A stretch of DNA of 64,000 nucleotides, taken from a virus. Location: the IMG/VR virus record IMGVR_UViG_3300046171_000138. One strand, 5' to 3'. Made by a program: the position numbers and the translations under genes. Below, piece by piece: positions 11,101 to 29,167 of the stretch. Under the pieces are notes generated by a model. That model did not search any database, had not been told where the DNA came from, and saw only the letters and a list, made by a program, of their open reading frames with translations. The stretch's first letter is position 1. Every line of letters starts with the position of its first letter.

Positions 11101-13541
11101 CCTTAATTGGTACATATCAGACTAGACTAAATGGTACTCTGGAAGTTGGTGCTTTCGCTGGTACATCTATCGCTAGAATCTTCACCACTGCAGCTACGCT
11201 GAATATTGGTGACGGACAGAACACTACGAGAGTTACTGTTGGTGCTAACTCTTCTACGGTAGACATCGCAGCACTTGGTGGTCGCACCACGATTAGAAAC
11301 TCGCTACTCGTTCAGGGTAGCACCACATCCAACTCCACCATTAAATTGTCTGGTGGTCTAAATGCTGGTATTATTGCAATTGATAGAGCAAGATTCGGCA
11401 CTTCTCCATCGGAGCATATCGTTGGATCTCTCGACAATCCTAACATCACGTTCCTCAAGTACATCCAGCTTGGTAGACAAATTGATACCGCTGGTGTTGG
11501 ACCTTGGGGTGGCGATCAGTACCTCCTATCTGGTGGTCAGGTTGCTGCAATTGATAACATTACTCCAGAATCGAGTGCAACATGGGTTGCTAACGAGACT
11601 TATTCGTTCATCACACCTACTGGTGGTACAGGTAACGGTGCTCTGTTCACTGTTCAGGTTCTATCTGACGGTACAGCAGACATTAGTCTAGTATCTCCTG
11701 GTTCTGGTTACTCTGACAACGATCTGCTGACTATTGAAGCAGCGAAGTTGGGTAACTCTGGCGGTGCTGATCTATCATTTAGGGTTAATGGAACTAATGA
11801 TTCTGGTAACGTATACTTACTACCAGTCACTAAACCATCTGTCAATGATTTCCAGATTGGTGATCTACTGTTTATCGAGAGATCAGTACAGGTAACTGGA
11901 CAGGATACAAACATTTCTCCTGTTGGTGAACAGTACAGTGAACTTCTTGAAGTTGCTGGTCTTACTAATATCACCGACCCTGCTGATCCTCTCGGTTTCA
12001 GAATCTTGGTTACTCGTGCTAAAGATGGTACGACTGCAAGAACTGATCACCCAGATAATGCAATCGTCTCCAAGTTTGATAAGCAACTCAATGCTTCGTT
12101 TATCACTGGATTTGACTTTGATAACAATGGAACTCTAGATCCTACATCTAGTGTTACGATTAACGATAATTCAATTCTAACAATCGTTGCTGATGGCACT
12201 GATATCGTCACCATTAATTGGAATAACGAGACTAACACTAGTGTTGGTGCTGATTACGGTGAGTTTATTACAATCGCGCAGACGGACATCGTTGGTCTAA
12301 ATGGTACATGGCCAATTCAAGGTGGTATCAGTGGTCCTGCATCTAGTCTACAGATCAAGACAAGTCAATATGTTTCGACAGGAACTTACGTCTGGTCTGA
12401 TCAGGCGGCATCTGCCGAACTTAAGATCAATAGTGGTGCTGGTCTACTGGCAGATTCGGCATCTGTTAGAATCGGCGTTGCAGAATTTGGTGGTGTTCTA
12501 ACTACCAGCGATTACCTGCTCCTATCTGATTCTGAAATTGTTAAGGTTGATGCTTTGGTATCTACCGACATTCAGTCTCTGATTGTCACAGACGGTGGTG
12601 ATCCTGAAGTTGAGGTATTTAAGGTTGAGTCTACAACTGGTAAAACATTCGTAGGCAACACACTATCGGTTGGACAAGGATTTAACAAGTTCATTGTTGA
12701 TGGTGGAACTGGTGATACCGTAACTCAAGGTAAACTAACCACCAATGATACTCTGAAGGTAAGAGGATCTGTTGTAGAACTGACCCAGTTCTTCACACTA
12801 ACCAACGGCGGTTCATCAGGTATTGCTGAAAGAAACACACTTCGTGTTGATACTGCAACTGGTGATCTAGAAATTTATGGTGGCGACTTCAATATCTTCG
12901 GACCTGATGGCACTACACCACGTCTACAGTTCAATAATTCTTCAGGTGACTTCACTACCTTCGGTTCATTCTCTGCTCTGGGAACTGGAACATCTGTATT
13001 TGGTGGTAGTATCCTTGCTGGTGGTGATCTTACTGTCAACGGCGGTGATCTAACGGTTAACTCTGGTGGCACTGAAGTCTTCGGTGTTGATGAAGATGGC
13101 GCTGTTACTGTCGCTGGTATCTCCAACTACTTCTCACAAACTGGTGGTCGTAAGTGGGTCTACAGCGATTCCTTTGATGTTGATGCAGAAGCAAATACAA
13201 ACTACTTCCTCAATATCTCTCAAAATACGGTCGTTAAATTGCCTACAGGAGCTTTGATTGGTGACATGATTAGAATCGTTGATATCGGCGGTCTACTTAC
13301 CTACAACCTCTCGCTGGTTGTAAGAGCACCATCTACAATTAAAGTTCAAAATGCAAGTGATAACACAGGCACCACTCTATTGACGGGTAATACTGCTGAC
13401 CTAAATGGTTATGATGGTGGCGAACTAGTCGTTCAGACACCTAACGCTGGATTTGCACTAGTATTTGCTGGTACAACTGATCCAGATGGTAATACCGCAG
13501 TTCCAATAGGAAAAGACGGATGGTTCTTAATCGAGGTTTGA
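2171..13541 (+). CDS. Giant virion structural/fibre protein (~3,790 aa reconstructed), interrupted by 9 single-base indels between 4793 and 6920
   Basis: N-terminus MPLTRLDNL...YVSPDDFNATD..DNRGNSPLRPFKSIQRAFLE is typical of cyanomyovirus giant structural proteins. Fragments 2171-4795, 4716-5516, 5520-6401, 6274-6507, 6551-6793 and 6915-13541 join into one continuous frame. The C-terminus has the fibre module NYFLNISQNTVVKLP...GDMIRIVD. Confidence 0.8.
2490..2900 (+). repeat. Three tandem ~44-aa coding repeats
   Basis: Unit AAEI..(H/F)PDFF(Y/F)PG....(R)(Y/F)(A/K)D(A/G)YRL(V/I)Q(L/Q)NR.EI(V/I)D, with a period of about 130 nt. Confidence 0.85.
2954..4500 (+). repeat. Four ~125-aa KCKRD(I/L)G helical repeats (fifth copy at 6270)
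   Basis: (K/E)CKRD(I/L)G at 2954, 3314, 3686 and 4073, and KCERDIG at 6270. Each is followed by GGN. In the four tandem copies a second Cys follows (CANV twice, CADV, CIDV). Confidence 0.85.
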
Positions 13542-13545
13542 TTTA

Positions 13546-14922
13546 ATGTTCTACCAGGAGTCAAAGACAGCAAGAGCGGCAGTGGTTGGAACCATCATGC
13601 CATGGACGGGAGGGTTGAGTGACATCCCTCCTGGGTGGATTTTATGTAGTGGTGGTGTTGTAGATGCTGCAGATTATCCATTGCTTACACAAGCAGTTGG
13701 TAATACATATGATGCTTTAGGTGGATCTATTACAGGAAATTTCCCAAATTATACTGGGACAATTAAACTCCCTGATTTGAATGAAAAAGCTTTGATGGAT
13801 ATTGAAACTTCTTACTTTGCTCCCAGAGCATCTGGTGGTACTGGTAGGGATGCAGATATAGATCCTGATGCGCTCACTATTATGTCGCCAATTATCGGTG
13901 ACAATGAGGATAATGGTATTACTACTATCTTCACAAATGTCACTATTGATGTTATCTTTAATATCAATGCAGATGACAGAACTGGATACCAAGGAAAAAT
14001 TACAGGCAACACAAAAGAAGATGGAGAAGGTGTTGCTACAGTTTATACTGGTCCCAGAAAATTAGGAAGAAAGCACGTCAAGAGACATAATCACCCAGGA
14101 ACATATCCAACTCTGGAGGTTCAGAATCCACAATTACCTGGAGATGGTGTTGCTGGTTACGAGAATATTGCGTACACCTTATATCACTCACACGTTGATA
14201 ACGAGGGTGGTGGTCAAACAGGAGATACTTATTACTTTGGTTGGTCTGATGATAGTGCTGGTGATGGTTCGACTAGTAATGTTAATGCTGCTCCTGGACT
14301 CGCAGCTGGTAATGTAACTGGTAGTACAACTCCAGCTGGTGCAGAACTTGATTACATGTTTACTTGGCCAGCAGCTAATGCTACAATACCATCTGGATAT
14401 AATGGAGGATCGCAGGGTGTTGTTGTAGCACATGTGAGATCGGAGAACCCTCCCGTTAACATGAAACCCCAATCCGTACTAGGATCTCCAATTTCAAGTC
14501 AATTTGCTGTAACTAATTTAAGACCTGAAGGACCATTTTTGGATTCTAATCGTGCGGTTCCAGCTGCAGCTCGTGGTGGTAGTTTTAATATTCCTTCTGG
14601 TCTTAAGAACTACTATGATTCTTCAAATCAAACAGCATCACAAGTTCGTGCTACGATGATGAGTCATGCTGGAGTTAATTTTACCTCTAATGATCTGGGT
14701 TTAGGTGGTAATGTAGGTGATTCCATTGAAGCACATGATCACGGAGAGTTTGATATTGAGTTTGACTCTGGTGGTTTGAGACCTGCAACTAGTATTATCA
14801 CTGACGTTAACTTGCCTGGTACAGTCAATGTAGATAATACACAGAATGAGAGAGCATTGCAAATAGATATGAACATCTCACAACCAACACTTTCCTGCAT
14901 ATACATCATCAGAGCATACTAA
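13546..14922 (+). CDS. Tail-collar domain fibre protein
   Basis: VGTIMPWTG..SDIPPGWILCSG.VVDAADYPLLTQAVGNTY...IKLPDL collar motif, an internal HxH motif (RHNHPG) and the C-terminus QPTLSCIYIIRAY. Confidence 0.85.
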   Translation: MFYQESKTARAAVVGTIMPWTGGLSDIPPGWILCSGGVVDAADYPLLTQAVGNTYDALGGSITGNFPNYTGTIKLPDLNEKALMDIETSYFAPRASGGTGRDADIDPDALTIMSPIIGDNEDNGITTIFTNVTIDVIFNINADDRTGYQGKITGNTKEDGEGVATVYTGPRKLGRKHVKRHNHPGTYPTLEVQNPQLPGDGVAGYENIAYTLYHSHVDNEGGGQTGDTYYFGWSDDSAGDGSTSNVNAAPGLAAGNVTGSTTPAGAELDYMFTWPAANATIPSGYNGGSQGVVVAHVRSENPPVNMKPQSVLGSPISSQFAVTNLRPEGPFLDSNRAVPAAARGGSFNIPSGLKNYYDSSNQTASQVRATMMSHAGVNFTSNDLGLGGNVGDSIEAHDHGEFDIEFDSGGLRPATSIITDVNLPGTVNVDNTQNERALQIDMNISQPTLSCIYIIRAY

Positions 14923-14923
14923 A

Positions 14924-15841
14924 ATGGCAAAGTCAATATCTACTAATTACGCCAGACAGAAATCTCACTGGGGTGGTGTTCCTGGAACTATTCAGATGCA
15001 TACTGTTTACGGAATGGGATTTAATAATGATCCTAGTACGGCAGTATTCAGAGATAATATTCCTGGTGGATTTTTGAGGTGTGATGGATCTATTCTAAAT
15101 GTAAAAGATTATCTGCTATTGTCTAAAATTTTAGGTGTAGGAACCGAATGTAGATTTGCAAAAGAAAATGCAGTTCTACGTGATCCAGATGCTGACACAG
15201 GAGATCTTGGAACATTTCAGATACCTGACCTAGGATCTAAAGTTATCATCGGTGGTAGAGGATCTGGTGAGTATCGTGATACAACAATGGAGAACAAGCC
15301 CAACCAGAATAAGGTTGGTGTTGAAGTAACTCCACAGACACCTCTTGGCGAAAGACTATTTACAAATTACGTCTCTAATACTGGTGATGGCATGAAACTT
15401 ACTGCACAAACATCTATTCCTTTTAGAGGCAATATCAAGTACAACATGCCCTCTTATGTAAGTCCAGAGATTCTTTCTATTGAACAGTATCAAGCACATC
15501 AACATGAGGCTGACTCACACGTTCTAAACACCACAGCGTCTCAATATCGTATTGATGGTGATGGACTAACTGGCGACAGCTCCACAGCATATAGTGCAAA
15601 TGTAGAGGCAGAAAATATTTTGGATGAAACTCAACCAAACGTTCAGAGAGGTTCACCTAGTCACGATCACAGAATTTCAAAACCTTTCACTTACTCTCAA
15701 AACTTCAGTTATTCTTTCCCTGCTGCTAATATTCCACTAGATGACATGGAATCATACATCGATGTTGACACAACTAATTTAGAAGTATTGAACCAGGTTG
15801 TAACTCCTTTCATTATGGTACATTACATTATCAAGTTTTGA
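14924..15841 (+). CDS. Tail-collar domain fibre protein
   Basis: PGTIQMH...PGGFLRCDGSILNVKDYLLLSKILG...FQIPDL, HQH and HDH motifs, and the C-terminus VTPFIMVHYIIKF. Confidence 0.85.
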   Translation: MAKSISTNYARQKSHWGGVPGTIQMHTVYGMGFNNDPSTAVFRDNIPGGFLRCDGSILNVKDYLLLSKILGVGTECRFAKENAVLRDPDADTGDLGTFQIPDLGSKVIIGGRGSGEYRDTTMENKPNQNKVGVEVTPQTPLGERLFTNYVSNTGDGMKLTAQTSIPFRGNIKYNMPSYVSPEILSIEQYQAHQHEADSHVLNTTASQYRIDGDGLTGDSSTAYSANVEAENILDETQPNVQRGSPSHDHRISKPFTYSQNFSYSFPAANIPLDDMESYIDVDTTNLEVLNQVVTPFIMVHYIIKF

Positions 15842-15842
15842 T

Positions 15843-17348
15843 ATGGCTCAATACAACAGTCAATATACTTATAGTAGTAGCTTAACATTAAGAGCTGATG
15901 TAAAATACGTCCAGTATATTACTGTTGCTGGTGGTGGAGGTGGTGCTAGACCTTTTGCTGGAGCTGGTAGAATTCCTCAAAATGGTGGCGATACCAGACT
16001 CAACACAACAGGATTATGGTCTCAAGGTGGTAGAGCTGGCGAACTAAATCGTGGTGGTTATGGTGGATACGGAAACTATTCCTATGGTAGGAATGGTCAG
16101 ATCAATAATTCTGGTGGTGAGTTTTTGCGTGCTGCGTCTGGTTATGGACCATATGGATTTGGTGGTGCAGGACAGTGGCGAGGTCCGCCAAACTCTGGCG
16201 GTGGTGGTGGCGGCGGTGCGTCAATCGCAACATATTATCGAGGATCAAATGGTGCTGTTGGTGGTCAAAGCGTAGGTTGGACTATCGGACAAGGTGGAGT
16301 GCAGGGTGGTAATGGTAATAGAAGAAGAGGTTATGTTGGCGGGATTTATATCAATCAAACCACTTATGATAGACCTGCTGCTAGTATAAGTGCCAATCCT
16401 TCTTCTATCATTTTAGGAAGCTCCACTACATTAACCTGGACTACATCTGGCGATATTGATAGTGTTAACATTAGTGGAATAGGTAATGTAAGTACGAGTG
16501 GATCTTTAGCTATTACTCCATCAGGATCAGGAAATTGGACAATTAATGCAATTAATCCAGCATATACAACACAGGATACAGTTACAGTTACGGTATTAAT
16601 TCCACCAATAGTTAACATGTATTTTGACAATGACACTATTGTTTTGGGAGAAAGTGCTGAATTGTTCTGGAATGTTAGTGGTGATGCTAGTCAAATGTCT
16701 ATTGATAATGGAATTGGTGTTACTAACCTGACGGGTAGTCAAATAGTTACACCAACACAATCTGTAGTTTATACAGGAACTGCTACTGGTGCTGGTGGAA
16801 CAGGTAGTGACACTGCTGTGCTAACAGTATTGCCACCACCATCATTGAGTGTTTCTGGTCCAATTGTTGTTGACTATTTGGATGACATGGCTTTTAGCGT
16901 CAGTGCTACAAATGTACCTGGTGGTGTTAGTTTTACTACTGCATATCTTAATACAAATCAGAGTCAAGAACAGGAAGCTTCAGTAACTATTCCAGGTAGT
17001 AATGGTGATCTGGTTGAGATTACAGATTTTTCATATACTCCTGCATATGATAATTTTGGTCCAACATCAGTAACATTTTTGTTTACTGCCAATGGATATG
17101 GTGGATTGCTGGCATATGAGCAAGTAGTTATTCCTGTCAATATCGACCAGACACCAGATGCTATTGATATTCCCTCAACTGAAGATAAGTTGAGAGATGA
17201 AGCGCCTGTTGTCACACCTAACGTTGAGGTTACAACAGAACAGATTGTGGTTGAGGATATTGATATCCCTGTTGAGATTAAGTCTGATTATCCCATTCAG
17301 GTTGAAATCGAGAACGGTGATGTCTGGTATGATGTGAGGCAAATCTAA
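15843..17348 (+). CDS. Adhesin-like fibre paralog 1 (Gly-rich tip, Ig-like repeats, shared C-terminal module)
   Basis: Gly-rich N-terminal ~170 aa, SISANPSSIILGSSTTLTWT-type repeats, and the C-terminus IDQTPDAIDIPSTEDKLRDEAPVVTP...WYDVRQI. Confidence 0.75.
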   Translation: MAQYNSQYTYSSSLTLRADVKYVQYITVAGGGGGARPFAGAGRIPQNGGDTRLNTTGLWSQGGRAGELNRGGYGGYGNYSYGRNGQINNSGGEFLRAASGYGPYGFGGAGQWRGPPNSGGGGGGGASIATYYRGSNGAVGGQSVGWTIGQGGVQGGNGNRRRGYVGGIYINQTTYDRPAASISANPSSIILGSSTTLTWTTSGDIDSVNISGIGNVSTSGSLAITPSGSGNWTINAINPAYTTQDTVTVTVLIPPIVNMYFDNDTIVLGESAELFWNVSGDASQMSIDNGIGVTNLTGSQIVTPTQSVVYTGTATGAGGTGSDTAVLTVLPPPSLSVSGPIVVDYLDDMAFSVSATNVPGGVSFTTAYLNTNQSQEQEASVTIPGSNGDLVEITDFSYTPAYDNFGPTSVTFLFTANGYGGLLAYEQVVIPVNIDQTPDAIDIPSTEDKLRDEAPVVTPNVEVTTEQIVVEDIDIPVEIKSDYPIQVEIENGDVWYDVRQI

Positions 17349-18694
17349 TGCCACAAGTTAGTATTTCATGGTCTAGAAACGCAGGAGACAGTAACTACCT
17401 ATATGGTATGCCTGGTGGAACTATTGGTCCCAATAGTGGTAGTAGAACTGTAAATGTTGGGTGGAATCAAACATACAATCTATCTGCTAATGGTAGCGGT
17501 CCTGGCAATGTTGCCATGCGAAGACTAAACAACAACACACTTGGTCTTGACGATAGACAAGGTGCTGGAGCTGATGGTGACTACAATGACATGATCATAT
17601 ATGTCAACAATGGTGGATTTATTAATAACAGTCAGTATCGTAGTCCCACACCTGTATATGGATGTACAAACAGTGCTGCAATTAATTACAATCCATCTGC
17701 ACAAGTAGATGATGGATCTTGTGTTGTTGTAAACCCAACACTATATCTTACTTCTAGTAATAATCCACTTATCAGAGGACAAAGCACTAATATATCGTGG
17801 TCTACTTCTTATGGACAGTACATGCAAAGTGCAACAGTAACTGGTATTGGTAATGTAAATACATCTGGTAGTAGTAGTATACAACCCCAAAGTTCTGGCA
17901 CATATACATTCACAGTATCATGGAATGGGGGAAGTAGATCAACGAGCTTGCAGCAGACTGTGTATATACCACCACAAATTACAGCATATTTTGATACAAA
18001 TACTATTGTTCTTGGAGGAAATACTAGATTATGGTGGTCAACTAGTGGTGATGCCAGCACTATGACTATCAGTCCTAGCATTGGAGCGACATTGTTGAGT
18101 AGTAATGCAATAGTACAACCAACACTGACAACCACATATACGCTTACTGCTAATGGTGTTGCTGGATCTACTAGTGAACAACTCACTTTAACAGTAATTC
18201 AACCACCATCACTAGAAGTTAGTGGTCCAATTGTAGTACCATATGGTCAGGAAACTATTAATTTTTCTTACGAAGTAACAAATGCAAATAGTGTAGATGT
18301 AGAGGTGATACAGAGAGATTTAGATAATAGTGATACCACTTATAATTTCACTACTTCTACTGACGCATCTTTATATGAATATACTCCAGTCTGGGGAAAT
18401 CGTGGACCTATGGCAATTATTGTTACTATGACTGCTAATGGTCAAGGAGGATTGATAAGGATTAGGCAAGTTACCGTTCCTGTTAGTATCGATCAAACAC
18501 CAGATGCTATTGATATTCCCTCAATTGAAGATAAATTGAGAGATGAGCAACCAGTTATTACCCCTGATGTTGAGGTTACTAGTGAACAGATTGTTGTTGA
18601 TGATATAGATATTCCTGTAGAAGTTAAATCTAATTTTCCTGTTCAGGTTGAGATCGATAATTCTAATGTCTGGTATAACATAAGAGAGCTATGA
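17348..18694 (+). CDS. Adhesin-like fibre paralog 2 (putative Ca/lectin-like tip)
   Basis: Tip contains LGLDDRQGAGADGDYNDMIIYV, followed by YGCTNSAAINYNPSAQVDDGSC and the shared C-terminal module. Confidence 0.75.
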   Translation: MPQVSISWSRNAGDSNYLYGMPGGTIGPNSGSRTVNVGWNQTYNLSANGSGPGNVAMRRLNNNTLGLDDRQGAGADGDYNDMIIYVNNGGFINNSQYRSPTPVYGCTNSAAINYNPSAQVDDGSCVVVNPTLYLTSSNNPLIRGQSTNISWSTSYGQYMQSATVTGIGNVNTSGSSSIQPQSSGTYTFTVSWNGGSRSTSLQQTVYIPPQITAYFDTNTIVLGGNTRLWWSTSGDASTMTISPSIGATLLSSNAIVQPTLTTTYTLTANGVAGSTSEQLTLTVIQPPSLEVSGPIVVPYGQETINFSYEVTNANSVDVEVIQRDLDNSDTTYNFTTSTDASLYEYTPVWGNRGPMAIIVTMTANGQGGLIRIRQVTVPVSIDQTPDAIDIPSIEDKLRDEQPVITPDVEVTSEQIVVDDIDIPVEVKSNFPVQVEIDNSNVWYNIREL

Positions 18695-20361
18695 CTGTAA
18701 GTTTTAGTAAATTTAGTCCTGGAAGTATTACTTGGTCGGTCCCAGCATATGCTACTAACGTAACCTTTACAGTGGCTGCAGCAAATGGTGGAGGATCTCA
18801 ATCTACTACATGGAATCATTCGCGTGGTGGTTTTGGTAGAGCAGGTAACTTTACTATTGCAACAAGATCTTATGCATATAATTTAACTTTCTATCTCGGT
18901 TCTGCAGGTGCTAAAGGACAAGGACCCCAGAATCCTGGTGGATCTGGTGGTGGTTCTCCATTAGCAGGTGGTGGTAGGGGTCACCGTTCTGGTGGTGGCG
19001 GAGGCGGAGCTTCTGGCGTTTACGATAGTGGATTAGGAAGATACATCGCATGGGTCGGTGGCGGTGGTGGTGCTGGTAGGTTTGATAACCAAACTGGTGT
19101 TAGTGGATATTATTCTGCTGGTCGTGGTATTGGTGGTGGAGGCACTAGTAGTTCTCCGAGCTGGAGAACAGGTGGAACTGCCCCTGCTGGTCACCGTGGC
19201 GGTGGTGGTGGTGGATCAACTGCTGGTGGCGCTGGTGGATATGGAGGTGCAACAACCACTAATGGATATGCTGGTATTGGGGGCAACTCTGGGTGGTATA
19301 ATAATGGAGATATTGGTTGGATTACTAACAGTGGTTATGGAAACTTTGGTAACGGATATGGTGTTCTATCATATACAAATCCACCACCAACGATTAGTGT
19401 ATTTACAATCAATCCTTCTACACTAATTCTTGGAAATTCTTTCCAGATGCAGTGGAATGTTACTGGTGCAGTTTCGAGCGTAAATATTACTCCAGAACCT
19501 GGATCATCATCTACTTCTGGTAGTGGTACATTTACTCCCTCTCAAGATGCAACTTATACATTAACTGCAAGTGGACCTGGTGGAACAGTAGCGCAAAGTA
19601 TTCCTGTTGATATCAAGATACCGCCAGAAATTATATTATCAGTAGATAAACCCCAGATTACAGTTGGAGATGTTTTTACCTTATCGTGGGTAACTACTGG
19701 AGATGCTAATACTGTTAATATCAATCCTGGAGTTGGATCGACCAATCTTGTTTCAAGTATAGCACTCCAACCTACACAAACTACAACATATACGGCAGTT
19801 GCTAGCGGTCTTGGTGGAAGTGATACAGACCAGATTACTGTTGAGGTTGTGTATCCTCCAGAAGCTTCCTTAAATGGTCCAATATCTGTTGATTATGGTA
19901 ATGATATACTCCTGACATATAGCACAACAAATGCTACTGAACCACCACAGTTATTGAGAAAATATGTCAGTCAAGGTAATCCAGATCCAGATTGGACCTT
20001 GTATACAACTGTGCCAGCAGGAAATACTAGTCAAGGAAGCATTTTATTCCAACCAGATTATGATGACTTTGGACCAGATGTTATTTTGTTCCAGTTATAT
20101 GTCATTGGTGATGCTGGATTGTATTCTACTGCTCTTTTCAATGTATCAATCAATATCGATAGAACACCTGATGCTATTGATATTCCATCATCAGAAGATA
20201 AACTTCGTGACGAACAACCAGTTATTACACCTGATGCGGTAGTAACATCAGAACAAATTGTGGTTGATGATATTGATGTTCCTGTTGAAATCAAAGCAGA
20301 TCAACCTATTCAGGTTGAGATAGATGATAGCGGTACATTCCAAGAGGTTAGGGAGATCTAG
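18691..20361 (+). CDS. Adhesin-like fibre paralog 3 (Gly-rich tip)
   Basis: WSVPAYATNVTFTVAAANGGG...GGGGG glycine-rich domain and the shared C-terminal module. Confidence 0.75.
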   Translation: MTVSFSKFSPGSITWSVPAYATNVTFTVAAANGGGSQSTTWNHSRGGFGRAGNFTIATRSYAYNLTFYLGSAGAKGQGPQNPGGSGGGSPLAGGGRGHRSGGGGGGASGVYDSGLGRYIAWVGGGGGAGRFDNQTGVSGYYSAGRGIGGGGTSSSPSWRTGGTAPAGHRGGGGGGSTAGGAGGYGGATTTNGYAGIGGNSGWYNNGDIGWITNSGYGNFGNGYGVLSYTNPPPTISVFTINPSTLILGNSFQMQWNVTGAVSSVNITPEPGSSSTSGSGTFTPSQDATYTLTASGPGGTVAQSIPVDIKIPPEIILSVDKPQITVGDVFTLSWVTTGDANTVNINPGVGSTNLVSSIALQPTQTTTYTAVASGLGGSDTDQITVEVVYPPEASLNGPISVDYGNDILLTYSTTNATEPPQLLRKYVSQGNPDPDWTLYTTVPAGNTSQGSILFQPDYDDFGPDVILFQLYVIGDAGLYSTALFNVSINIDRTPDAIDIPSSEDKLRDEQPVITPDAVVTSEQIVVDDIDVPVEIKADQPIQVEIDDSGTFQEVREI

Positions 20362-20363
20362 AC

Positions 20364-21920
20364 ATGGCGGGAAGTGCTGGACAACTACATAGATTTGATT
20401 CGTTTTTTAACCCTAATAATCCTGGCGGGGATTCTTTTTATACCTCAAATCCTGGTGGAGAATCTTTGGGTGCATACTACCAGACTGGAACTAATGTATG
20501 GAACCTATTCATGGGCATGAGTTCTACTGGAATTAATGGTCAAAGTGTGTCTTATGTCTACAGATTTTGGAGTTCTAGCATCAATGATCACCTATTCAAG
20601 ACTTCATCTGGTACTCCTCAAAACTATCGTCGTGAAGGTATTATTGGTGTGGCATTTACGAGCAATGGACCATATCGCCAAGCAATCTATAGATATTATA
20701 AAAGTTCTACTGGCGACCATAGATATGACACTAGTAGTAGTACACCTAGCGGATATGTATTCGAGGGTATTGCGTGGTATTCTCCTATTCTCGTCTATGG
20801 ATGCAAAGATCCCAATGCTACTAACTATAACGGATGGGCAAATCAACCCAGCACAGGATGTAACTATACTGTATACGGGTGTACTGATCCAAATGCCTCT
20901 AACTATAATCCAAGTGCTAATGTTAATTCTGGGTGTACATATCCTACTCCAAGTGTAAGTTTGAGTATTAGTCCTAGTTCTATTATTCGAGGACAAAGCG
21001 CCACAATATCATGGAGTGCATATAACTCTACCTCTCAAAATATAACTGGTCTCGGTAATGTTGGTGGCAGTGGAAGTCAATCAGTAAGTCCTACCACTTC
21101 TACATCATATACTCTTACTGGAAATTATTATGGATATACAAATGCGTCTGTTAGTAGGACCCTCACTGTTTATCAACCTCCCAGTATACAATTTAATGTA
21201 GATGATAGTGAGATTGTTAGTGGTGCTAATACAACACTGCGTTGGAATGTATCTGGTAGTGTAAATTCAGTTACTATTGATAATGGAATTGGTGTTACTA
21301 ATCTAAATTCTTACCAAAATATTTCTCCAACAGTAACCACCACATATACTCTGTCTGCTTCTGGTCCTGGTGGAACTGGTAGCGGAACAGTCACAGTTGT
21401 TGTAGTTGATCCACCAGAAGTTGCGATTAATGGTCCTATAGTGGTAAATTATGGAGACAACGTAACTATTTCTCATGAGATGGTGAAAGCAGTAACAACT
21501 TATGAGTTGCAAATACTAGAAACTGATCTGGATAATAACACCGCAGCACCACCTGTAAGTCCTGTTAATCTTGGACCAGGACAATCTGCGAATAGCACAT
21601 ATACTCATTATGTTACATATCATGATAGAGGACCACGCTCTATTTCATATGTTTTGTATGCAGTTGGACAGGCTGGTTTAACTGCTATTGATCAACTTAT
21701 TGTGCCTATTAACATTGACCAGACACCTGATGCTATTGAGATTCCATCATCAGAAGATAAACTACGTGATGAACTTCCAGTCATTACTCCCAATATCGAA
21801 GTTACCACCGAACAAATTGTTATTGATGACATAGATATTCCAGTAACAATTAAAGCAAGTCAACCTATTCAGGTAGAAATTGATGATAGTGGTACATATC
21901 TGCCAGTAGAGGAACTATAA
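20364..21920 (+). CDS. Adhesin-like fibre paralog 4 (DUF5648/AbfB-like triple-repeat tip)
   Basis: Repeats LHRF..GDSFYT, VYRFWSSSINDHLF..YRREGI and IYRYYKSSTGDHRY..YVFEGI, two YGC.DPNA.NY repeats, and the shared C-terminal module. Confidence 0.75.
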   Translation: MAGSAGQLHRFDSFFNPNNPGGDSFYTSNPGGESLGAYYQTGTNVWNLFMGMSSTGINGQSVSYVYRFWSSSINDHLFKTSSGTPQNYRREGIIGVAFTSNGPYRQAIYRYYKSSTGDHRYDTSSSTPSGYVFEGIAWYSPILVYGCKDPNATNYNGWANQPSTGCNYTVYGCTDPNASNYNPSANVNSGCTYPTPSVSLSISPSSIIRGQSATISWSAYNSTSQNITGLGNVGGSGSQSVSPTTSTSYTLTGNYYGYTNASVSRTLTVYQPPSIQFNVDDSEIVSGANTTLRWNVSGSVNSVTIDNGIGVTNLNSYQNISPTVTTTYTLSASGPGGTGSGTVTVVVVDPPEVAINGPIVVNYGDNVTISHEMVKAVTTYELQILETDLDNNTAAPPVSPVNLGPGQSANSTYTHYVTYHDRGPRSISYVLYAVGQAGLTAIDQLIVPINIDQTPDAIEIPSSEDKLRDELPVITPNIEVTTEQIVIDDIDIPVTIKASQPIQVEIDDSGTYLPVEEL

Positions 21921-23278
21921 TGCCATATCGTATTGGACATTGGAATAATTACGGTGGATCATGTGTCACCAACTATAGTATATGGTTCCCTGGTGGCGGT
22001 GGAGATTTTAATGATACCTACCGCAATCAAGTTACATATGCATATATGTCATTGTTTGGTAGATACGGAGAACAGGCTGGTGTAGAAGGATACGTAGGTA
22101 CGTGGGTATATGGTACTGGACAGCAGGTATATGGTACTATCACAAATATGGTCAAAAGGGGTGGTATATCCAGTGGTGAATATGGTCAAGTTCAGTCAAG
22201 GGGTAGGCATACTGGCATGGCTAGTGGTACTTGTCCACCACCAATAATCAGGGGATGTACTAATCCAAACGCAGTAAACTATAATCCAAGAGCACAACAA
22301 GATGATGGTACATGTTATTTCAATCCACCGTATGTAAACATATCTGTTAGTCCAACTTCGTTTATAAATCCAGGATCTGCAACTCTTTATTGGAGTACAT
22401 CAAATACTTATTCTAGATCAATTACTAGCATTGGGTCTGTTAGTACATCTGGTAGTATTACGGTATCTCCTACTAGTACAACGACTTATACGTTAACAGG
22501 ATATGGATATGGCGGTAATCGAAGTAATTCTGTTGTATTGTACGTATATCAACCTCCTCAAGTAACATTAACGCTTGACAATTCTACAATTGTTATTGGA
22601 GAAACCACTAGATTGAGATGGACTACTACTGGAGATGCTAGCACCATGACTATCACTCCTGGAATTGGATCAACTAATTTAGTAAGTAATCAAATTATTT
22701 CTCCGACAATCACCACTACATATACTGCAACTGCATCTGGTCTAGGTGGAACTGATAGTCAACAAATTACTATCACTGTAATACAACCACCAGAAGTTGA
22801 TCTTGCTGGTCCTCTATCAGTAAATTATGGTGATGATATTATATTATCCCATGAACAAGTGAGAGCAACTACAACATATGAATTGAGGATTAAAGAGTAT
22901 GATCTTGATTTAAGTGAAACTGATAGAGTTGTGGATCTAGGTTTTGCTGCTAGTGGTACATATACAGATACTGTTGCGTATCATGATAGAGGACCATCTT
23001 CTATCAGATATGAGTTATATGGTGAGGGAGCTGGTGGACTTCAATCTATCAAAGTAGTTACAGTTCCTATTAATATTGATCGAATACCAGATGCTATTGA
23101 CATTCCATCATCAGAAGATAAACTACGTGATGAACTTCCAGTCATTACACCTGATGCAATAGTTACTAGTGAACAAATTGTTGTTGAGGATGTAGACATC
23201 CCTGTGGAGATTAAATCCAACTATCCTATTCAAGTTGAAGTTGATGGTGGTACATTCCAAGATGTTAGAGAGATGTGA
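21920..23278 (+). CDS. Adhesin-like fibre paralog 5 (DUF4214-like tip)
   Basis: QVTYAYMSLFGRYGEQAGVEGYVG, GCTNPNAVNYNPRAQQDDGTC and the shared C-terminal module. Confidence 0.75.
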   Translation: MPYRIGHWNNYGGSCVTNYSIWFPGGGGDFNDTYRNQVTYAYMSLFGRYGEQAGVEGYVGTWVYGTGQQVYGTITNMVKRGGISSGEYGQVQSRGRHTGMASGTCPPPIIRGCTNPNAVNYNPRAQQDDGTCYFNPPYVNISVSPTSFINPGSATLYWSTSNTYSRSITSIGSVSTSGSITVSPTSTTTYTLTGYGYGGNRSNSVVLYVYQPPQVTLTLDNSTIVIGETTRLRWTTTGDASTMTITPGIGSTNLVSNQIISPTITTTYTATASGLGGTDSQQITITVIQPPEVDLAGPLSVNYGDDIILSHEQVRATTTYELRIKEYDLDLSETDRVVDLGFAASGTYTDTVAYHDRGPSSIRYELYGEGAGGLQSIKVVTVPINIDRIPDAIDIPSSEDKLRDELPVITPDAIVTSEQIVVEDVDIPVEIKSNYPIQVEVDGGTFQDVREM

Positions 23279-23315: not shown

Positions 23316-26300
23316 ATGACCTTTTCGTTCGGAACTACACCTGTATATGTAAGCGAAGGGCAAACTATTCGCCTGAAGTTTAAAGCGCCATCGGCTTGGG
23401 ATACAACTCAAAGCGTAACGGTTCAGATTGGTGATCAGCAGACAATCTGGTATATCTCTACGATTCCAGAAGATTTTGCACCAGATCCATATCCATTTAC
23501 ACCATTAGATGAGGCAACACCAGACATCATGTATGTCTATGGTGATGGTACTAGAGCACAAGAAGATATTATAGAAGTTTCTGGATTAACACCTGGATCA
23601 TCTGCTAGTGTTTCACTAGTATCATCTTATCTTGGAGCTAATATTGATGACTATGCTGTTCGTATTCAGTTAGTACACCAAGGTGAAGCAGACTTTGGAT
23701 CATGGGTTATTCCATCTAGTAATATCTTCGTACAAAATGGTGATAGAGTCCAGTTAAGACTGAAGTCTAATGATACTGGTGGTCTTACAAGAGTTGCTGA
23801 CTTAACTATTGGTGCTAGAACCGAGAGATGGACTATCACCTCGGCAATACAACCACCTAACATTCCAGAACCATTCCCTGATTTTGACGAAATCATTGGT
23901 AGTCCAGTTGACACAGATGTTTATAGTGAGATCTTAAGAGTTACTGGTCTGAATGACCAGGCAATAGTCAATACTGATAATGGTGCTCTAATTGGTATCT
24001 CTACTAGCAATGCTTTTATTGTAAACGATGAAGGATATAATGTTTTAGATAACACCACATTTGTTGCTTCTAGTACCAACCCAACCATCCAGAATGGTGA
24101 GTATATACAGTTAGTATTAACTACACCAGCAACATCAACTACTACCACTACAAATCTCTTGAGTATTGGTGATGCTGTTGCTGGATCTAGTTGGGGTGTT
24201 ACTACTGGTAGTTTCCCATCTACTACGCCTGGATCCTTTGTATTCAATGATGCACTTGATGCACTTGAGGATACTTTGATTGCATCTGATGTAAAACCAG
24301 CTAGTGGTATCGTTGGATTAGGTAATGGTGTAACTGTACCTGTAACACTAGTATCCACAGATGGTACAGAACCAAGAGTTAAAATCTACTATGATAATGG
24401 TAGTGAAAGTTCTGTCGGAATCTTCCCTACAGATGTGAGTAATGGTGATAAAATTCAGATCTATAACAAATCCGATGCCACATTTGGTGGTACAGTATCT
24501 ACCACGATTAAAGTTGGTACACTACAGATTCCTACATGGTCTATCGTTACAAACACTGGTCCTGATACTGACGCAGCATTTACACCACCAAATAATCTTA
24601 CTAACAGGGCACCTAATAGACAATATGTTAGTTCTATTGTTGCTGTCACTGGTATCAATAGAGATATTACAATCACTGGCACAAATGGTGTACTCATTTC
24701 CATTGACTTTGATACACCAGTTGTAGGACCAAGAACATTTACACCTGCTAACAGTAGTTTTCAGTTATATCTAAACGCTAGTGGTCTTGCTAGCACTGTA
24801 AGCACTACTGTTGTTGTAGGTACTGGTGCTAGTAATCAATTTACTTGGAATGTATCCACATATGCCGTAGCACCACCAGCGCCAGAATTAAAAGGAACAT
24901 GGTATAGTAGAAAGAACTCTTACACATATGAAGATACTAATGGTGATGTTCAATTAAGAAATGCGAAGGATGATGGTCTTGCTATTGGTACAGTTCTTTC
25001 CGTTCTTAAGCAACCAAACGGATCTTATGGTACAATAGATGGTGACCTGGATTCTAGATATCCTGGTTTCATTGAGTGTGATGGTAGACCACTATCAAAA
25101 ACTGAATACCTTGATTTGTTTGCTGTTATTGGTACACATTATGGACAGTCTGATGCCAATGGTAATACTGGAACTACACACTTTAAAGTTCCTGACTATA
25201 GAAACAGGAAACTTACTGGAGTTGGTGTTGTTGATGGTAATAGATCATCATCTGCTTTCCTTCCAACAAATAACATCAACGAACCAGGTAACACTGGTGG
25301 GTGGTGGTATGTTGACAAGGTAGATGTTGCTGGTGATAATCCCTATGAGCAAATACTGCAAGGTGGTTCACAAGCTGAAGGTAAGGTTCAGACATTTGCA
25401 TTGTGGCAGAATAAACCTTCTGTTGATGCTGAATATATTGAAAGAACAGTCGGTCAATATGTAAATAGAGGTGAGGGTGGTAATCCTGACTATTGGACTG
25501 CATTCGGTGAATCTCAAGAGGAGGATGTTTTAGTTCTTGGTGGTACTGGTAGTGGACTACGACTGCGAGTTAGAGCAGAAGCAAATGATTTGGATGGATC
25601 AGGTAATCCAGATGATACAAGAGTTACAGTTGTGTCAATACTAGATCCTGGTACTGGATATCAATCTGGGGATTTGATGGACATTGGATTCTCCACTGCT
25701 GCACCTGGTGGTGGCACTGTTATACTTTCTCCTGGCATTAAAGTATTAACAGTAACGTCAACACCAGTAATCAATTCTGATGAAGGCACCGAGAGTAACT
25801 TCTTTAACTTTGGTACAGTTAAGACACAATTCAATGCACCAATTCAAGCTGACGTTGAGTTTACTGTTAATGGTACGGTAACTGCACAGATTGGACAGTT
25901 ACAGGAGAAAATCATTGATGTTCCTACACATAGTCACCTATTTGTTACTGCATTTACTGCTGAAGGATTTGGTGGTACAGGATTGATTCCATGGAACAGT
26001 CAAGTTTTTGCTAATAGTGGTCTAGGACAGGTGAATAAATCAACTGGTACTGGTGATGGTCCATACATTAACTTCATTGGTGGCGGTGGTATTGCTGAAG
26101 ATGAAATTTATCGAGAGCAACCTGATGTATGGTATCCACTATATCTGTCAGAGTTGAAATCAAAAACTCAACCAGGTGGCAATGCTCTGTACTTCGATCA
26201 ACTTTGGGATGATATTCTTCAGTCAAATGAAGGTAGAAGTTTTAAGGAACGCATTGTTGAATGGGCAGGAACATTTGGAGACGCTCCTCTTGAAGAGGGA

Positions 26301-26867
26301 GATCCTCCAGGAACAGCTAGTTTGACACTAACTGCGAAAGTATTCTGGCCATCACCTTTCAACAGTCTTAACTCTGACGATGTTGTATCAGTAGCAGGAA
26401 ATCATCTGAACTTGAAGAGATATCCAGACGATGTATATGGAACAACTGGTGGTGGACCAACTGCTGTTTCTGCTGCTATTGATGTTACTGGATCAAGATT
26501 TAGAATTGAGGCATATACTCCACCAGCAATTCTAGAAGATAGTGACACTACAACTTCTTCTCACAATCACCTAATGGGGTTAACTCCTGTTTTAGATCCA
26601 ACGCAAGATTATAGTTATGGTAACCAAAATGGTCCTGGTCTTTTCAAAACAGGATTGGGTGGTTTTGGTACTACACTTAACGTCAGTTTTGACAATAATC
26701 AATTTGTTGGTAACACACCACCAGTTGGATATGTGTTGAATACTGGTACATTCACTCTTAATCAGAATATCAAGAAACCAATTCCTAGCGTCAAGATGAA
26801 ACCCAACATACAAGTTCCTATCATACAAGAGTTTCACAAAGTCAAATATATAATCAAGGCATATTAA
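23316..26867 (+). CDS. Large fibre/structural protein with N-terminal Ig-like repeats and an internal tail-collar domain
   Basis: Collar motif AIGTVLSV...YPGFIECDGRPLSKTEYLDLFAVIGTHYG...FKVPDYRNR, HSH and HNH motifs, and the C-terminus FHKVKYIIKAY. Confidence 0.8.
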   Translation: MTFSFGTTPVYVSEGQTIRLKFKAPSAWDTTQSVTVQIGDQQTIWYISTIPEDFAPDPYPFTPLDEATPDIMYVYGDGTRAQEDIIEVSGLTPGSSASVSLVSSYLGANIDDYAVRIQLVHQGEADFGSWVIPSSNIFVQNGDRVQLRLKSNDTGGLTRVADLTIGARTERWTITSAIQPPNIPEPFPDFDEIIGSPVDTDVYSEILRVTGLNDQAIVNTDNGALIGISTSNAFIVNDEGYNVLDNTTFVASSTNPTIQNGEYIQLVLTTPATSTTTTTNLLSIGDAVAGSSWGVTTGSFPSTTPGSFVFNDALDALEDTLIASDVKPASGIVGLGNGVTVPVTLVSTDGTEPRVKIYYDNGSESSVGIFPTDVSNGDKIQIYNKSDATFGGTVSTTIKVGTLQIPTWSIVTNTGPDTDAAFTPPNNLTNRAPNRQYVSSIVAVTGINRDITITGTNGVLISIDFDTPVVGPRTFTPANSSFQLYLNASGLASTVSTTVVVGTGASNQFTWNVSTYAVAPPAPELKGTWYSRKNSYTYEDTNGDVQLRNAKDDGLAIGTVLSVLKQPNGSYGTIDGDLDSRYPGFIECDGRPLSKTEYLDLFAVIGTHYGQSDANGNTGTTHFKVPDYRNRKLTGVGVVDGNRSSSAFLPTNNINEPGNTGGWWYVDKVDVAGDNPYEQILQGGSQAEGKVQTFALWQNKPSVDAEYIERTVGQYVNRGEGGNPDYWTAFGESQEEDVLVLGGTGSGLRLRVRAEANDLDGSGNPDDTRVTVVSILDPGTGYQSGDLMDIGFSTAAPGGGTVILSPGIKVLTVTSTPVINSDEGTESNFFNFGTVKTQFNAPIQADVEFTVNGTVTAQIGQLQEKIIDVPTHSHLFVTAFTAEGFGGTGLIPWNSQVFANSGLGQVNKSTGTGDGPYINFIGGGGIAEDEIYREQPDVWYPLYLSELKSKTQPGGNALYFDQLWDDILQSNEGRSFKERIVEWAGTFGDAPLEEGDPPGTASLTLTAKVFWPSPFNSLNSDDVVSVAGNHLNLKRYPDDVYGTTGGGPTAVSAAIDVTGSRFRIEAYTPPAILEDSDTTTSSHNHLMGLTPVLDPTQDYSYGNQNGPGLFKTGLGGFGTTLNVSFDNNQFVGNTPPVGYVLNTGTFTLNQNIKKPIPSVKMKPNIQVPIIQEFHKVKYIIKAY

Positions 26868-26882
26868 TATTATTTTATTATC

Positions 26883-27575
26883 ATGACACAACAAATCGCT
26901 CCTTATCGTCCACTTGAACTAATGGAAAATCCAAAAATCACCAAGTGTGATTTTACAGATTTTATTGGTGTGTGGGAAAATTTCGTACCAGCAGCTCTAT
27001 GTCAACAACTTGTCACATATGGTGATAGAGTCTTCAATGAAGATGTTGCTAGTGTTCTGAACCAAGATGATGAAGATCAAGGTGATCTAGGAGCTTCAGA
27101 AGGCGAGATTAACATCATGGAAGGTTCTGCCATGTATGGGTCTGCATTTACTAGACATGATAGATCATTCATGCTAAACTATGCATCAGCAAAATATACT
27201 AATAATATTAACCAGATGCTGAAATCATGTGCTAATCACTATTGCTGTTACTATTCTACATTGAAGAAGACTAAAATGTTTTCTTCTGACATCAAGTTTC
27301 AGAAAACTCCAACTGGTGGTGGATATCACTCATGGCACTATGAAAATGGTACAATTGAATGTGCTGCTCGTGAATTGACATGGATGATTTATCTAAATGA
27401 TATTGAAGATGGTGGTGAAACCGAGTTCATGTATCAGAAACGTAGGATTAAACCTACAGTCGGCACAGTAGTTATTTTCCCTGCTGGTCTAACACATGTT
27501 CATAGGGGAGGTTTCCTTTTAGGTGATAAGGATAAATATATAGTAACAGGTTGGTATATCAAAACTCATGGCTGA
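26883..27575 (+). CDS. 2OG-Fe(II) oxygenase
   Basis: GGGYHSWHYE, LTWMIYLNDIEDGGETEF, IFPAGLTHVHRG and KYIVTGW motifs. Confidence 0.88.
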   Translation: MTQQIAPYRPLELMENPKITKCDFTDFIGVWENFVPAALCQQLVTYGDRVFNEDVASVLNQDDEDQGDLGASEGEINIMEGSAMYGSAFTRHDRSFMLNYASAKYTNNINQMLKSCANHYCCYYSTLKKTKMFSSDIKFQKTPTGGGYHSWHYENGTIECAARELTWMIYLNDIEDGGETEFMYQKRRIKPTVGTVVIFPAGLTHVHRGGFLLGDKDKYIVTGWYIKTHG

Positions 27576-28539: not shown

Positions 28540-29167
28540 TGTTCTGACTCCTGCAGAGTCAGGCAATATACTTTCTGTATACACAGAGCATAGATTTCAC
28601 TGTGGGAGTGATAGTAATCCCAGAGAAGGTGTAAAGAAAAGTTCTGTACTTAATTACGATGACCCAGACTACAAGAGATGTATGCAAACTCTGTATACTC
28701 CTCTACAAAAAGGATTATCTGATTTTCTAATCAGGAGATCTGGACAACCATACTTTGTCTGGTATAAGACTGGTGGATTTTATAAATGGCATTTAGATGC
28801 ATTCCCTATCGCTGGTATTGCACCACACTTTAGTTTCACTGTAGCTCTCAATGACCCTGATGAATATGAGGGTGGAGAGTTAGTCATTCGTGTTGGCAAT
28901 ACTGAACATGAATTCAAACCACCAAAAGGATCAGTAATTTTATATAATACTGGTCTATGGCATAAAGTAAATGAAGTCACTGCAGGTAATAGAAAGGTTG
29001 CTATTGGGTGGGCAGAGAGTTACATTAAAGAATCTGCCATGAGACAGAATATTATTGATCTTAAACATGCAATCAATGATGTTGCTGATGACGTTAGTCA
29101 CGAACAACTAGAGAAACTTGAATCCGCAAGGATGAATATGATTAGGGAATTTGTAGATAGACCATGA
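28520..29167 (+). CDS. PKHD-type (YbiX/PiuC-like) Fe(II)/2OG hydroxylase
   Basis: GGFYKWHLD, FSFTVALNDPDEYEGGELVI, KPPKGSVILY..LWHKVNEVTAGNRKVAIGW, and a YbiX-like C-terminal helix. Confidence 0.88.
   Translation: MIWLLNDVLTPAESGNILSVYTEHRFHCGSDSNPREGVKKSSVLNYDDPDYKRCMQTLYTPLQKGLSDFLIRRSGQPYFVWYKTGGFYKWHLDAFPIAGIAPHFSFTVALNDPDEYEGGELVIRVGNTEHEFKPPKGSVILYNTGLWHKVNEVTAGNRKVAIGWAESYIKESAMRQNIIDLKHAINDVADDVSHEQLEKLESARMNMIREFVDRP

Follow-up and report, generated by a model that had tools for sequence, protein, structure and literature searches.

The five tightly packed plus-strand genes at positions 15843 to 23278 of the DNA studied here encode, on balance, probably accessory adhesin arms that a T4-like cyanophage bears on its tail or baseplate; the arms would be anchored through a common C-terminal module and carry glycan-binding heads in some cases. 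The analysed stretch of 64,000 nucleotides (the window) derives from an uncultured T4-like cyanophage (Kyanoviridae) of marine cyanobacteria, and each of the five proteins comprises 448 to 556 amino acids. Since units of this type have been swapped, lost, gained and fused in related viruses, the array is likely a set of exchangeable tools for attachment to the surface of the host. We infer the docking via the module, its partner's identity, the placement on the tail and the binding of receptors from the observations described below.

In keeping with the original prediction, the five proteins are paralogs with a single layout: an N-terminal tip, two Ig-like domains (Ig1 and Ig2), a third β-sandwich (D3) and a near-invariant C-terminal module. 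The individual genes are as follows.

15843 to 17348, plus strand: gene 1, 501 aa; Gly-rich tip (about residues 1-169), Ig1, Ig2, D3, module at 17148-17345; match to phrog_2155 with E 4.7e-128
17348 to 18694, plus strand: gene 2, 448 aa; short tip (about residues 1-91), Cys-motif linker, Ig1, Ig2, D3, module at 18494-18691
18691 to 20361, plus strand: gene 3, 556 aa; long Gly-rich tip (about residues 1-193 or more), Ig1, Ig2, D3, module at 20161-20358; match to phrog_2155 with E 7e-170
20364 to 21920, plus strand: gene 4, 518 aa; DUF5648 β-propeller tip (residues ~8-141), two Cys-motif linkers, Ig1, Ig2, D3, module at 21720-21917
21920 to 23278, plus strand: gene 5, 452 aa; strand-plus-helix tip (residues 1 to ~97), Cys-motif linker (98-137), Ig1 (138-210), Ig2 (214-288), D3 (292-385), module (387-452; 23078-23275)

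When aligned with the product of gene 1, the other four proteins exhibit 37-41% identity; their N-termini cannot be aligned, while the last ~70 residues are near-invariant. Within the 64-kb window, the module and the profile of Ig2 are confined to the array. Neighbouring genes are joined by TAATG or ATGA overlaps, or are separated by gaps of 1-2 nt, and the overlaps suggest that all five are translationally coupled. Programmed −1 frameshifting across the junctions was considered and rejected: all four next genes are in the −1 frame, yet only 4-10 open codons precede each ATG, and a reading of the four junction sequences revealed no obvious slippery heptamer. The array was also searched for an internal late promoter and for terminators, with a negative result: TATAAATA is absent, and consensus sites occur at chance level.

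All five paralogs match phrog_2155, a family annotated as 'virion structural protein', with E values from 1e-123 to 1e-170, and the alignments extend from profile positions ~600-780 through position 1192 of 1193. This family corresponds to T4-GC 737-739 (Sullivan et al. 2010), whose members include S-PM2 p223-225, S-CAM3 gp229-234 and Syn1 035-037. The description of the array as an undescribed system therefore has to be qualified, since the family had already been catalogued and annotated under both of these names; we found no published account of the architecture or evolution of phrog_2155. Its association with virions, which had been part of the original prediction, is borne out by the literature for S-PM2, where two homologues, p223 and p225 (T4-GC 737 and 739), are marked as detected in virions, each by 3 peptides (PMC3037559, Suppl. 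Table 8). The order of the locus is preserved in S-PM2, S-CAM3, ACG-2014i/j, Syn1 and IMG/VR loci, in which the array is found between a tail collar gene and a fibre with a Collar domain. In the window, the flanking genes are the following.

6915 to 13541, plus strand: giant fibre-like protein of 2208 aa, the first of the cluster, assigned by synteny only; its counterpart in isolates is annotated 'short tail fiber protein'
13546 to 14922, plus strand: gp12-like short tail fibre protein (phrog_4591, Pfam Collar domain)
14924 to 15841, plus strand: tail collar protein (phrog_4714), always immediately 5' of the array
23316 to 26867, plus strand: 1183-aa fibre, the downstream neighbour (phrog_4924, Collar domain)

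The Collar domain (PF07484) is present in three neighbouring proteins, and the five paralogs themselves gave no match to it. The phage studied here shares with the phrog_2155-containing isolates (S-PM2, S-CAM3, Syn1) the protein family, its position, the Ig-Ig-D3-module chassis and a downstream Collar-domain fibre, which measures ~1100 aa in the isolates. It differs from them by its uncultured lineage, by the presence of five units and by its own combination of tips, which is seen only in close metagenomic relatives; its locus has less than 60% amino acid identity to that of any isolate.

Among the five tips, that of gene 4 is the only one that can be firmly identified from its sequence. Its assignment to DUF5648 (PF18885) had been made in the original prediction and is confirmed by a Pfam match above the gathering score (E 5e-14 to 1e-15; 53-58 bits, cut-off 25); the same domain is present on 10/49 and 6/85 family members. 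DUF5648 is the O-antigen-targeting receptor-binding domain of the BSAP-2/3 toxins (bioRxiv 10.1101/2025.01.06.631476). The tip of gene 2 resembles DUF4114 (PF13448) below the threshold (21-22 bits, cut-off 27; E 3e-4 to 7e-4) and over a stretch of just 35 residues where the profile ends; DUF4114 matches occur in 4/49 orthologues, with E values of up to 8.5e-5. The Gly-rich tips of genes 1 and 3 have no Pfam match, including to PF12810 and PF21722. For the tip of gene 3 there is a lead to an ALK/LTK-type glycine-rich domain (atlas score 0.88, 179-182 shared features), and Gly_rich_2 matches were found in 2/85 family members (5e-4). The assignment of the gene 5 tip to DUF4214 (PF13946) found no support, as neither this tip nor its orthologues produced a Pfam match at E<=10 and the corresponding atlas lead (0.81) is at chance level. 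Other family members carry PA14, SUEL lectin, CBM5/12 and ChitinaseA_N domains as tips. Most tips lack a recognisable fold family; those that can be identified by sequence comparison (DUF5648, PA14, SUEL lectin, CBM5/12) are carbohydrate-binding modules or lectin types.

AlphaFold2 models were obtained for the proteins encoded by genes 5 and 4, all as monomers. In both, the tip, Ig1, Ig2 and the third β-sandwich are modelled with pLDDT values of ~90 or above. Fold searches with these models yielded tandem Ig arrays, adhesins built from Ig arrays and PKD/CARDB-like matches; the lists obtained with whole models are dominated by the Ig domains, not by the tips. RB49 Hoc is one of the fold matches (3shs, E 8.9e-9; Foldseek), and it raises the question of whether the five proteins are Hoc-like decorations of the capsid, the sheath or the fibres, which would not determine host receptors but would lend the virion stability, or a weak and non-specific adherence to particles or mucus-like polymers. 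In favour of this alternative, the polarity of the paralogs matches that of Hoc, with Ig-like domains pointing outward and binding through the C-terminal part, and the annotation 'outer capsid protein' has been given to a related cyanophage protein rich in Ig domains. A further point in its favour comes from a co-evolution experiment with S-PM2, the text of which reports mutations in three genes termed 'short tail fiber' (S-PM2d219, d220 and d224) and mentions none in the paralogs located between them, according to a mapping of the gene numbers that is our own. This result also counts against the adhesin-arm explanation. Nevertheless, we regard a Hoc-like role as quite unlikely: the similarity is that of a generic Ig fold only, the genes occupy a fixed place in the tail-fibre/chaperone cluster of every genome examined, the tips are of specific lectin and CBM types, and cassettes are exchanged between isolates of the same species, as would be expected under host-driven diversifying selection.

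Copy number and tip repertoire both differ among relatives, as had been anticipated. The arrays comprise 2-6 units, and the number of units varies even within one species; furthermore, 2-4 units may be joined in a single ORF, as in L025 (4 units in 2259 aa, the longest such protein) and in ACG-2014j US23 (1861 aa, two modules). Breakpoints at the boundaries of modules and tips were detected in the window and between two ACG-2014j isolates (US103 and US23). The window contains the following traces of exchange.

17171 to 17623, plus strand: recombinant patch comprising gene 1 module and gene 2 tip, which matches a 4-gene clade (L009/L010) and not the otherwise nearest relatives (L003/L015); left breakpoint within 17157-17171, right breakpoint within 17623-17627
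20238 to 20280, plus strand: second, short patch within the gene 3 module, with clade-B affinity
21729 to 21787, plus strand: short gene-conversion tract of 59 nt in the gene 4 module, identical at 58/59 positions to 23090-23148 in the gene 5 module, 47 of them in an exact run

The notion of swappable tips consequently holds in so far as natural exchange has occurred with breakpoints at the boundaries of modules and tips; the idea of free shuffling does not, because the tips mostly represent old orthologous groups in a fixed order. These patterns bear on another possible role of the proteins, namely as structural parts of the baseplate wedge or fibre network that replace missing T4 gp10/gp11-type proteins and whose variable N-termini are tolerated insertions without a role in binding. 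Cyanomyoviruses indeed lack gp10, gp11, gp12, gp34-37 and wac, for which virion proteins of unassigned function are believed to substitute (PMC2984593); the conserved position of the array is in line with such a function. We consider it highly improbable, however, since the family occurs in only 49 phage records and is missing from many other cyanomyoviruses, since variation of unit number within a species is unexpected for an essential, symmetric component of the baseplate, and since the tips are conserved as orthologous groups that include bona fide glycan-binding domains.

The C-terminal module is a segment of 66 aa that is acidic and rich in proline, with a net charge of −12 to −13. In nearly all of 178 clusters it forms the very C-terminal end of the protein, and it has a pLDDT below 50 in both modelled paralogs. 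Its apparent failure to fold autonomously in the models fits a docking element. A comparison of the module with the sequences of solved structures gave no match (best E 0.43), and nothing was found in NCBIfam. Among the window paralogs, third-position identity at codons for the same amino acid is 0.56-0.67 in the module versus 0.42-0.70 elsewhere. As there is no excess of synonymous identity, the conservation of the module reflects selection at the protein level, and wholesale recent gene conversion was rejected as its main cause; only the short tract shared by genes 4 and 5 bears signs of conversion.

The leading candidates for the partner of the module are encoded by the flanking genes. The array and the first 600 residues of the 1183-aa fibre (23316-25115) occur in the same 49 phage records, circumstantial evidence that makes this downstream fibre a candidate docking partner; the co-occurrence may be mere linkage inside one clade. 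A resemblance of the module to the N-terminal repeats of the fibre was examined and rejected at the level of sequence profiles (hhalign probability 0.2%), and the length of the downstream fibre (981-1185 aa) bears no relation to the number of units (2-6). Alternatively, the modules might bind one another and thereby form the common stem of a multi-headed fibre, of which the fused proteins would be the covalent version. By Rosetta-stone logic, fusions of whole units (L025; ACG-2014j US23) imply that units are co-located; the module is unfolded when modelled as a monomer; and its identity among paralogues within a genome (0.64) is at least as high as that among orthologues between genomes (0.60), unlike the Ig and D3 regions, in which the paralogues are less similar to each other than the orthologues. 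Unit numbers of 2, 3, 4, 5 and 6 fit an oligomer of fixed stoichiometry poorly, however, and the stem would still require a means of attachment to the virion, so that we deem self-association of the modules unlikely. A point against docking through a free C-terminus is the internal location of the module in the fused 2-4-unit proteins, where a conserved junction comes after internal modules; its end need not be free, unless the fusions are cleaved.

In the adhesin-arm explanation that we prefer, each arm would be a rod of three β-sandwich domains, probably monomeric, whose N-terminal head is at the distal end and would, for some of the paralogs at least, be a glycan-binding module. The 66-aa module would fold only upon binding to a shared site on the virion, for which the leading candidate is the network of fibres specified by the neighbouring genes, with the downstream fibre of 1183 aa in first place. 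Since all arms would possess the same anchor, several different heads would be displayed at once, and the phage could thus recognise a number of glycans on the surface of Synechococcus or of particles. The conserved DNA of the module and the tip/chassis boundary would provide the homology for recombination between co-infecting phages, by which units would be swapped, added, deleted or fused. Taken together, these features may define a new attachment system of marine cyanomyoviruses, with up to six lectin-headed, monomeric Ig-stalk arms (or one polyprotein), a common virion site engaged via a fold-on-binding module, combinatorial recognition of multiple glycans, and module DNA that serves as a recombination joint for whole arms or single heads; we advance this composite picture only tentatively, as it is possible but not probable in all its parts.

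[quoted passage not shown] In comparison with the CBA120-type systems, the polarity of the proteins studied here is inverted, with a C-terminal anchor and N-terminal heads instead of a conserved N-terminal adaptor; their stalk is a string of Ig-like domains that is probably monomeric, whereas that of the CBA120-type proteins is a trimeric β-helix; their heads appear lectin- or CBM-like and not depolymerases; and their anchor is an acidic segment that seems to lack an autonomous fold. With Hoc of the T4 type, to which the fold match with RB49 Hoc points, they have in common tandem Ig-like domains (three in this comparison) directed outward and a C-terminal part for attachment, which in Hoc is a domain that binds to the centres of capsid hexamers. 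Apart from the Ig fold itself, their sequences are unrelated to Hoc, and the additional distal head, the tail-fibre gene context and the tandem multi-gene array set the proteins of the window apart. Fraser et al. are said to have described Ig-like domains on phage tail proteins. In lactococcal phages, CBMs are inserted into Dit and Tal, and accessory glycan-binding or Ig-like domains are thought to aid adsorption; the units described here differ from such insertions into core proteins as free-standing, exchangeable subunits, or parts of a polyprotein, each with a dedicated anchor.

The genes for the long and short fibres of T4 are missing from the T4-like cyanophages of Synechococcus and Prochlorococcus. 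With their lectin-type heads, natural cassette variants and small conserved anchor, the phrog_2155 units are concrete candidates for the recognition of host surfaces, and ACG-2014j US103 and US23, between which a single cassette is essentially the only difference, offer natural variants within one cultured species. The anchor might also provide a handle for the display of chosen binding domains on the particles of laboratory cyanophage strains, and an HMM of the module could serve as a marker of adhesin turnover in ocean viromes.

We lean, on balance, towards the interpretation that the five tandem genes g1 to g5 encode exchangeable adhesin arms of the phage tail or baseplate, which would combine glycan-binding heads with a beta-sandwich spacer, be anchored by a C-terminal module and be renewed by recombination. 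The genes are joined by TAATG or ATGA overlaps, or are separated by gaps of 1-2 nt:

g1, 15843-17348, plus strand, open reading frame of 501 aa
g2, 17348-18694, plus strand, open reading frame of 448 aa
g3, 18691-20361, plus strand, open reading frame of 556 aa
g4, 20364-21920, plus strand, open reading frame of 518 aa
g5, 21920-23278, plus strand, open reading frame of 452 aa

An alignment of the five proteins (37-41% identity of the others to g1) revealed unalignable N-termini, a common central part with many invariant residues, and an almost invariant stretch formed by the last ~70 residues. Two HMMs, one for the C-terminal module and one for the second Ig domain, matched only g1 to g5 when the whole 64-kb window was scanned in six frames. 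The open reading frames, the alignment and the HMM scan hence bear out the original prediction of five consecutive paralogs with dissimilar N-termini and a conserved C-terminus. At all four junctions (17333-17348, 18679-18694, 20352-20364 and 21890-21920), each downstream gene is in the -1 frame relative to its predecessor; no slippery site was seen there when the sequences were read by eye. At the g1/g2, g3/g4 and g4/g5 junctions, the final conserved codons of the upstream gene (V-R-E/Q) contain GAGG- or GGAG-like Shine-Dalgarno motifs, and a weaker AGAGAG precedes g3; a role in translation initiation may thus account for some of the conservation at the C-terminus.

The complete g5 and g4 proteins were modeled with AlphaFold2. 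The g5 model (mean pLDDT 84.6) comprises the following segments:

aa 1-~97, tip with two strands and five helices
between tip and Ig1, small Cys-containing linker
aa 138-210, first Ig domain (Ig1)
aa 214-288, second Ig domain (Ig2)
aa 292-385, third beta-sandwich (D3)

From the tip to D3, most of the chain has pLDDT values of at least 90 (79-94 for tip and linker). Values drop below 50 over residues 388-452, where conservation is highest. The g4 model (mean pLDDT 83.0) follows the same pattern, with an all-beta tip (aa 8-141) and a disordered segment (aa 457-498). The module spans 66 aa, with a net charge of -12 to -13, 16-18 acidic residues and 6-7 prolines, and has no match in Pfam, NCBIfam or the sequences of solved structures. 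D3 alone resembles PKD/CARDB/CBM-like sandwiches (e.g., 4xed; Z 10.0, rmsd 2.3 Å, 90 residues), and the structures retrieved with Foldseek and VIA-align are tandem Ig arrays, among them titin, the adhesins SiiE and GhpA, an ice-binding adhesin, and RB49 Hoc. A Hoc-like decoration that provides non-specific adherence is quite unlikely in our estimation.

A Cys-flanked motif of ~25 aa (G-C-T-x-P-x-A-x-N-Y-N-P ... G-x-C) lies between tip and Ig1 in three of the proteins, where it forms a small linker of good model confidence without a Pfam match; it is absent from g1 and g3. Its approximate positions are:

g2, ~17640-17720
g4, ~20800-20960 (two copies)
g5, ~22215-22330

The tip of g4 is a DUF5648 domain, as originally proposed (53-58 bits against a cut-off of 25). 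[quoted passage not shown] The g2 tip has a sub-threshold match to DUF4114, and that of g3 gives a lead to an ALK/LTK-type glycine-rich domain (atlas score 0.88). The DUF4214-like assignment initially made for the g5 tip was discarded as unsupported, since a Pfam search with this tip returned no match. Among 85 diverse family members, most tips have no assignable domain; those that could be identified are DUF5648 (six), a SUEL lectin (one; E 2.5e-9), ChitinaseA_N (one) and CBM5/12 (one), accompanied by weak matches to Gly_rich_2 or DUF4114. Other family members carry a PA14 tip.

All five paralogs match phrog_2155, annotated as 'virion structural protein' (E 1e-123 to 1e-170). Two genes precede the array on its 5' side, one for a gp12-like protein (phrog_4591) that has a Phage Tail Collar domain and the other for a tail collar protein (phrog_4714); on its 3' side lies the gene for a 1183-aa Collar-domain fibre (phrog_4924). 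None of g1 to g5 contains a Collar domain. The region after the fibre gene (26883-29700) is syntenic with S-PM2 p227-229 and, on that basis, encodes a 2OG-Fe(II) oxygenase, a tail assembly chaperone and a second oxygenase. By tblastn, the family is present in 49 phage records, at 1-6 places per record and with less than 60% aa identity to the window; all are T4-like cyanophages, either isolated on Synechococcus or without a host record. A nucleotide search with the window yielded a single match of 148 nt at 79%; the window thus represents an uncultured Kyanoviridae lineage. In the isolates S-PM2 (three paralogs, p223-225), S-CAM3 (six), ACG-2014j (two), ACG-2014i (three) and Syn1 (three), the locus has the order giant fibre, gp12-like protein, tail collar, paralogs, fibre of ~1000-1200 aa, 2OG oxygenase, and tail assembly chaperone.

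The association with the virion rests on the literature for the S-PM2 homologues, hence on a phage other than that of the window. Sullivan et al. (2010; PMC3037559, Supplementary Table 8) list T4-GC 737 and 739 as 'Structural protein ... Y, 3', i.e., detected with three peptides; among the three proteomes tabulated, only S-PM2 encodes them. Their coordinates (supplementary file 3), 179513-181216 and 182896-184644, correspond to p223 and p225 in the locus annotation. We regard a plain structural role in the baseplate network as improbable. An excerpt of a report on chemostat co-evolution of S-PM2 (PMC9910659) describes three 'short tail fiber' genes as mutated (S-PM2d219, d220 and d224), and names no mutation in the paralogs themselves; these genes flank the paralogs, if the d- to p-number correspondence that we infer is correct.

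Since g1 to g5 belong to a family contained in PHROGs, annotated in RefSeq and listed in the 2010 proteome table, they do not constitute an unknown gene family. Our full-text literature search found neither its architecture nor its anchor module, fused forms or cassette exchange described, although a description may exist. When the last 97 aa of g5 were searched against 1.84 billion representative proteins (E<=1e-3), only 178 module-bearing clusters were recovered, nearly all with the module at the extreme C-terminus. About a dozen among the 150 clusters listed possess 2-4 modules, as do many further proteins in a separate family protein set, and domain mapping revealed that such chains repeat the entire unit of tip, Ig, Ig, D3 and module. 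In L025 (IMGVR_UViG_3300035228_001474), a single 2259-aa open reading frame (6001-12780; no stops under table 11) with four complete units fills the slot from the tail collar gene to an 1185-aa fibre. Each of its internal modules is followed by a conserved acidic junction (RS / YG..AEPVG...DGPEEEEEFVE), which might act as a flexible linker or as a site of processing. In ACG-2014j isolate US23, two modules and eight Ig-type hits fall within one protein of 1861 aa, and ACG-2014i encodes a 1204-aa family member. Because modules also occur inside fused chains, the module does not require a free C-terminus, unless these chains are cleaved. Fusions of whole units argue that the units work side by side; that the modules of several units assemble with each other into a multi-headed fibre appears unlikely.

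For the exchangeable arms that we favor, the N-terminal head would bind a surface glycan, the three beta-sandwich domains would act as a spacer, and the acidic module would fold onto a virion site common to all arms, so that several different heads could be displayed simultaneously; the set of heads would be renewed through recombination, both at the module DNA and at the tip boundary. The downstream 1183-aa fibre is a candidate docking partner: a full-length match to its N-terminal 600 aa was obtained in exactly the 49 records that contain the family, and another 10 records have the tail collar protein without the array. This evidence is circumstantial, as linked genes of one clade co-occur anyway, and module and fibre share no sequence similarity. 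In multi-RBP phages, tandem genes share an anchor. The array resembles them in function and in its tandem genes with a common anchor, but differs in its inverted polarity, its Ig rod body, its lectin-type heads and an anchor without an autonomous fold.

In keeping with the swappable tips of the original prediction, both copy number and tips vary among relatives, as judged by scanning 21 IMG/VR loci and, in addition, the isolates with the module HMM and classifying tips by BLAST:

L003, L015, L011, L018 (closest relatives), g1-g5 in the order of the window
L007, L009, L010, L012-14, L017 (sister clade), g1-g4 only
S-CAM3, g1, g3, g4 and g5 types plus two others
L016, g1, g3 and g4 types plus two others

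By BLAST, the three S-PM2 tips show no relationship to those of g1 to g5. Genes cluster by orthologue in a tree of the Ig region, and since tip types and their order recur across loci, the tips are mostly old orthologous groups in a fixed order, with gain and loss. In Sf-CH1b (L028, 6691-13137), an IPT/TIG protein and a protein of 1466 aa are encoded in the slot that lies between tail collar gene and Collar-domain fibre; both have Ig-type hits and neither has the module, so the slot also admits Ig-rich proteins of other types.

At synonymous sites, the module (identity 0.56-0.67) is no more alike than the other regions, so its conservation reflects mainly selection on the protein. Within-genome paralogues versus between-genome orthologues show identities of 0.64 versus 0.60 in the module, 0.38 versus 0.45 in the Ig region, and 0.24 versus 0.37 in D3; the likeness of paralogues in the module would fit a shared partner, some concerted evolution, or both. 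A tract identical at 58/59 nt in the g4 and g5 modules points to a short conversion event.

Sequence comparisons indicate that cassette exchange does occur, at domain boundaries. When the window was compared with clade A (L003/L015) and clade B (L009/L010), 887 of 1025 informative sites had the clade A pattern, and the clade B sites clustered at 17171-17623, i.e., the g1 module and exactly the g2 tip (breakpoints between 17157 and 17171 and between 17623 and 17627). This agrees with the identity of the g2 tip to clade-B-type loci (96-97%) versus the nearest relatives (74-76%). A second small clade B patch covers part of the g3 module (20238-20280). The ACG-2014j isolates US103 (L024) and US23 (L031) share 93% identity as far as the beginning of gene 2, whose tip and chassis are unalignable (582 aa versus 1861 aa); the alignment resumes where the module begins, 205 nt before the stop codon, with 90.5% identity. 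Within one phage species, a whole cassette thus differs in the array slot between flanks of 90-93% identity, and the two isolates provide a natural pair for a comparison of host range.
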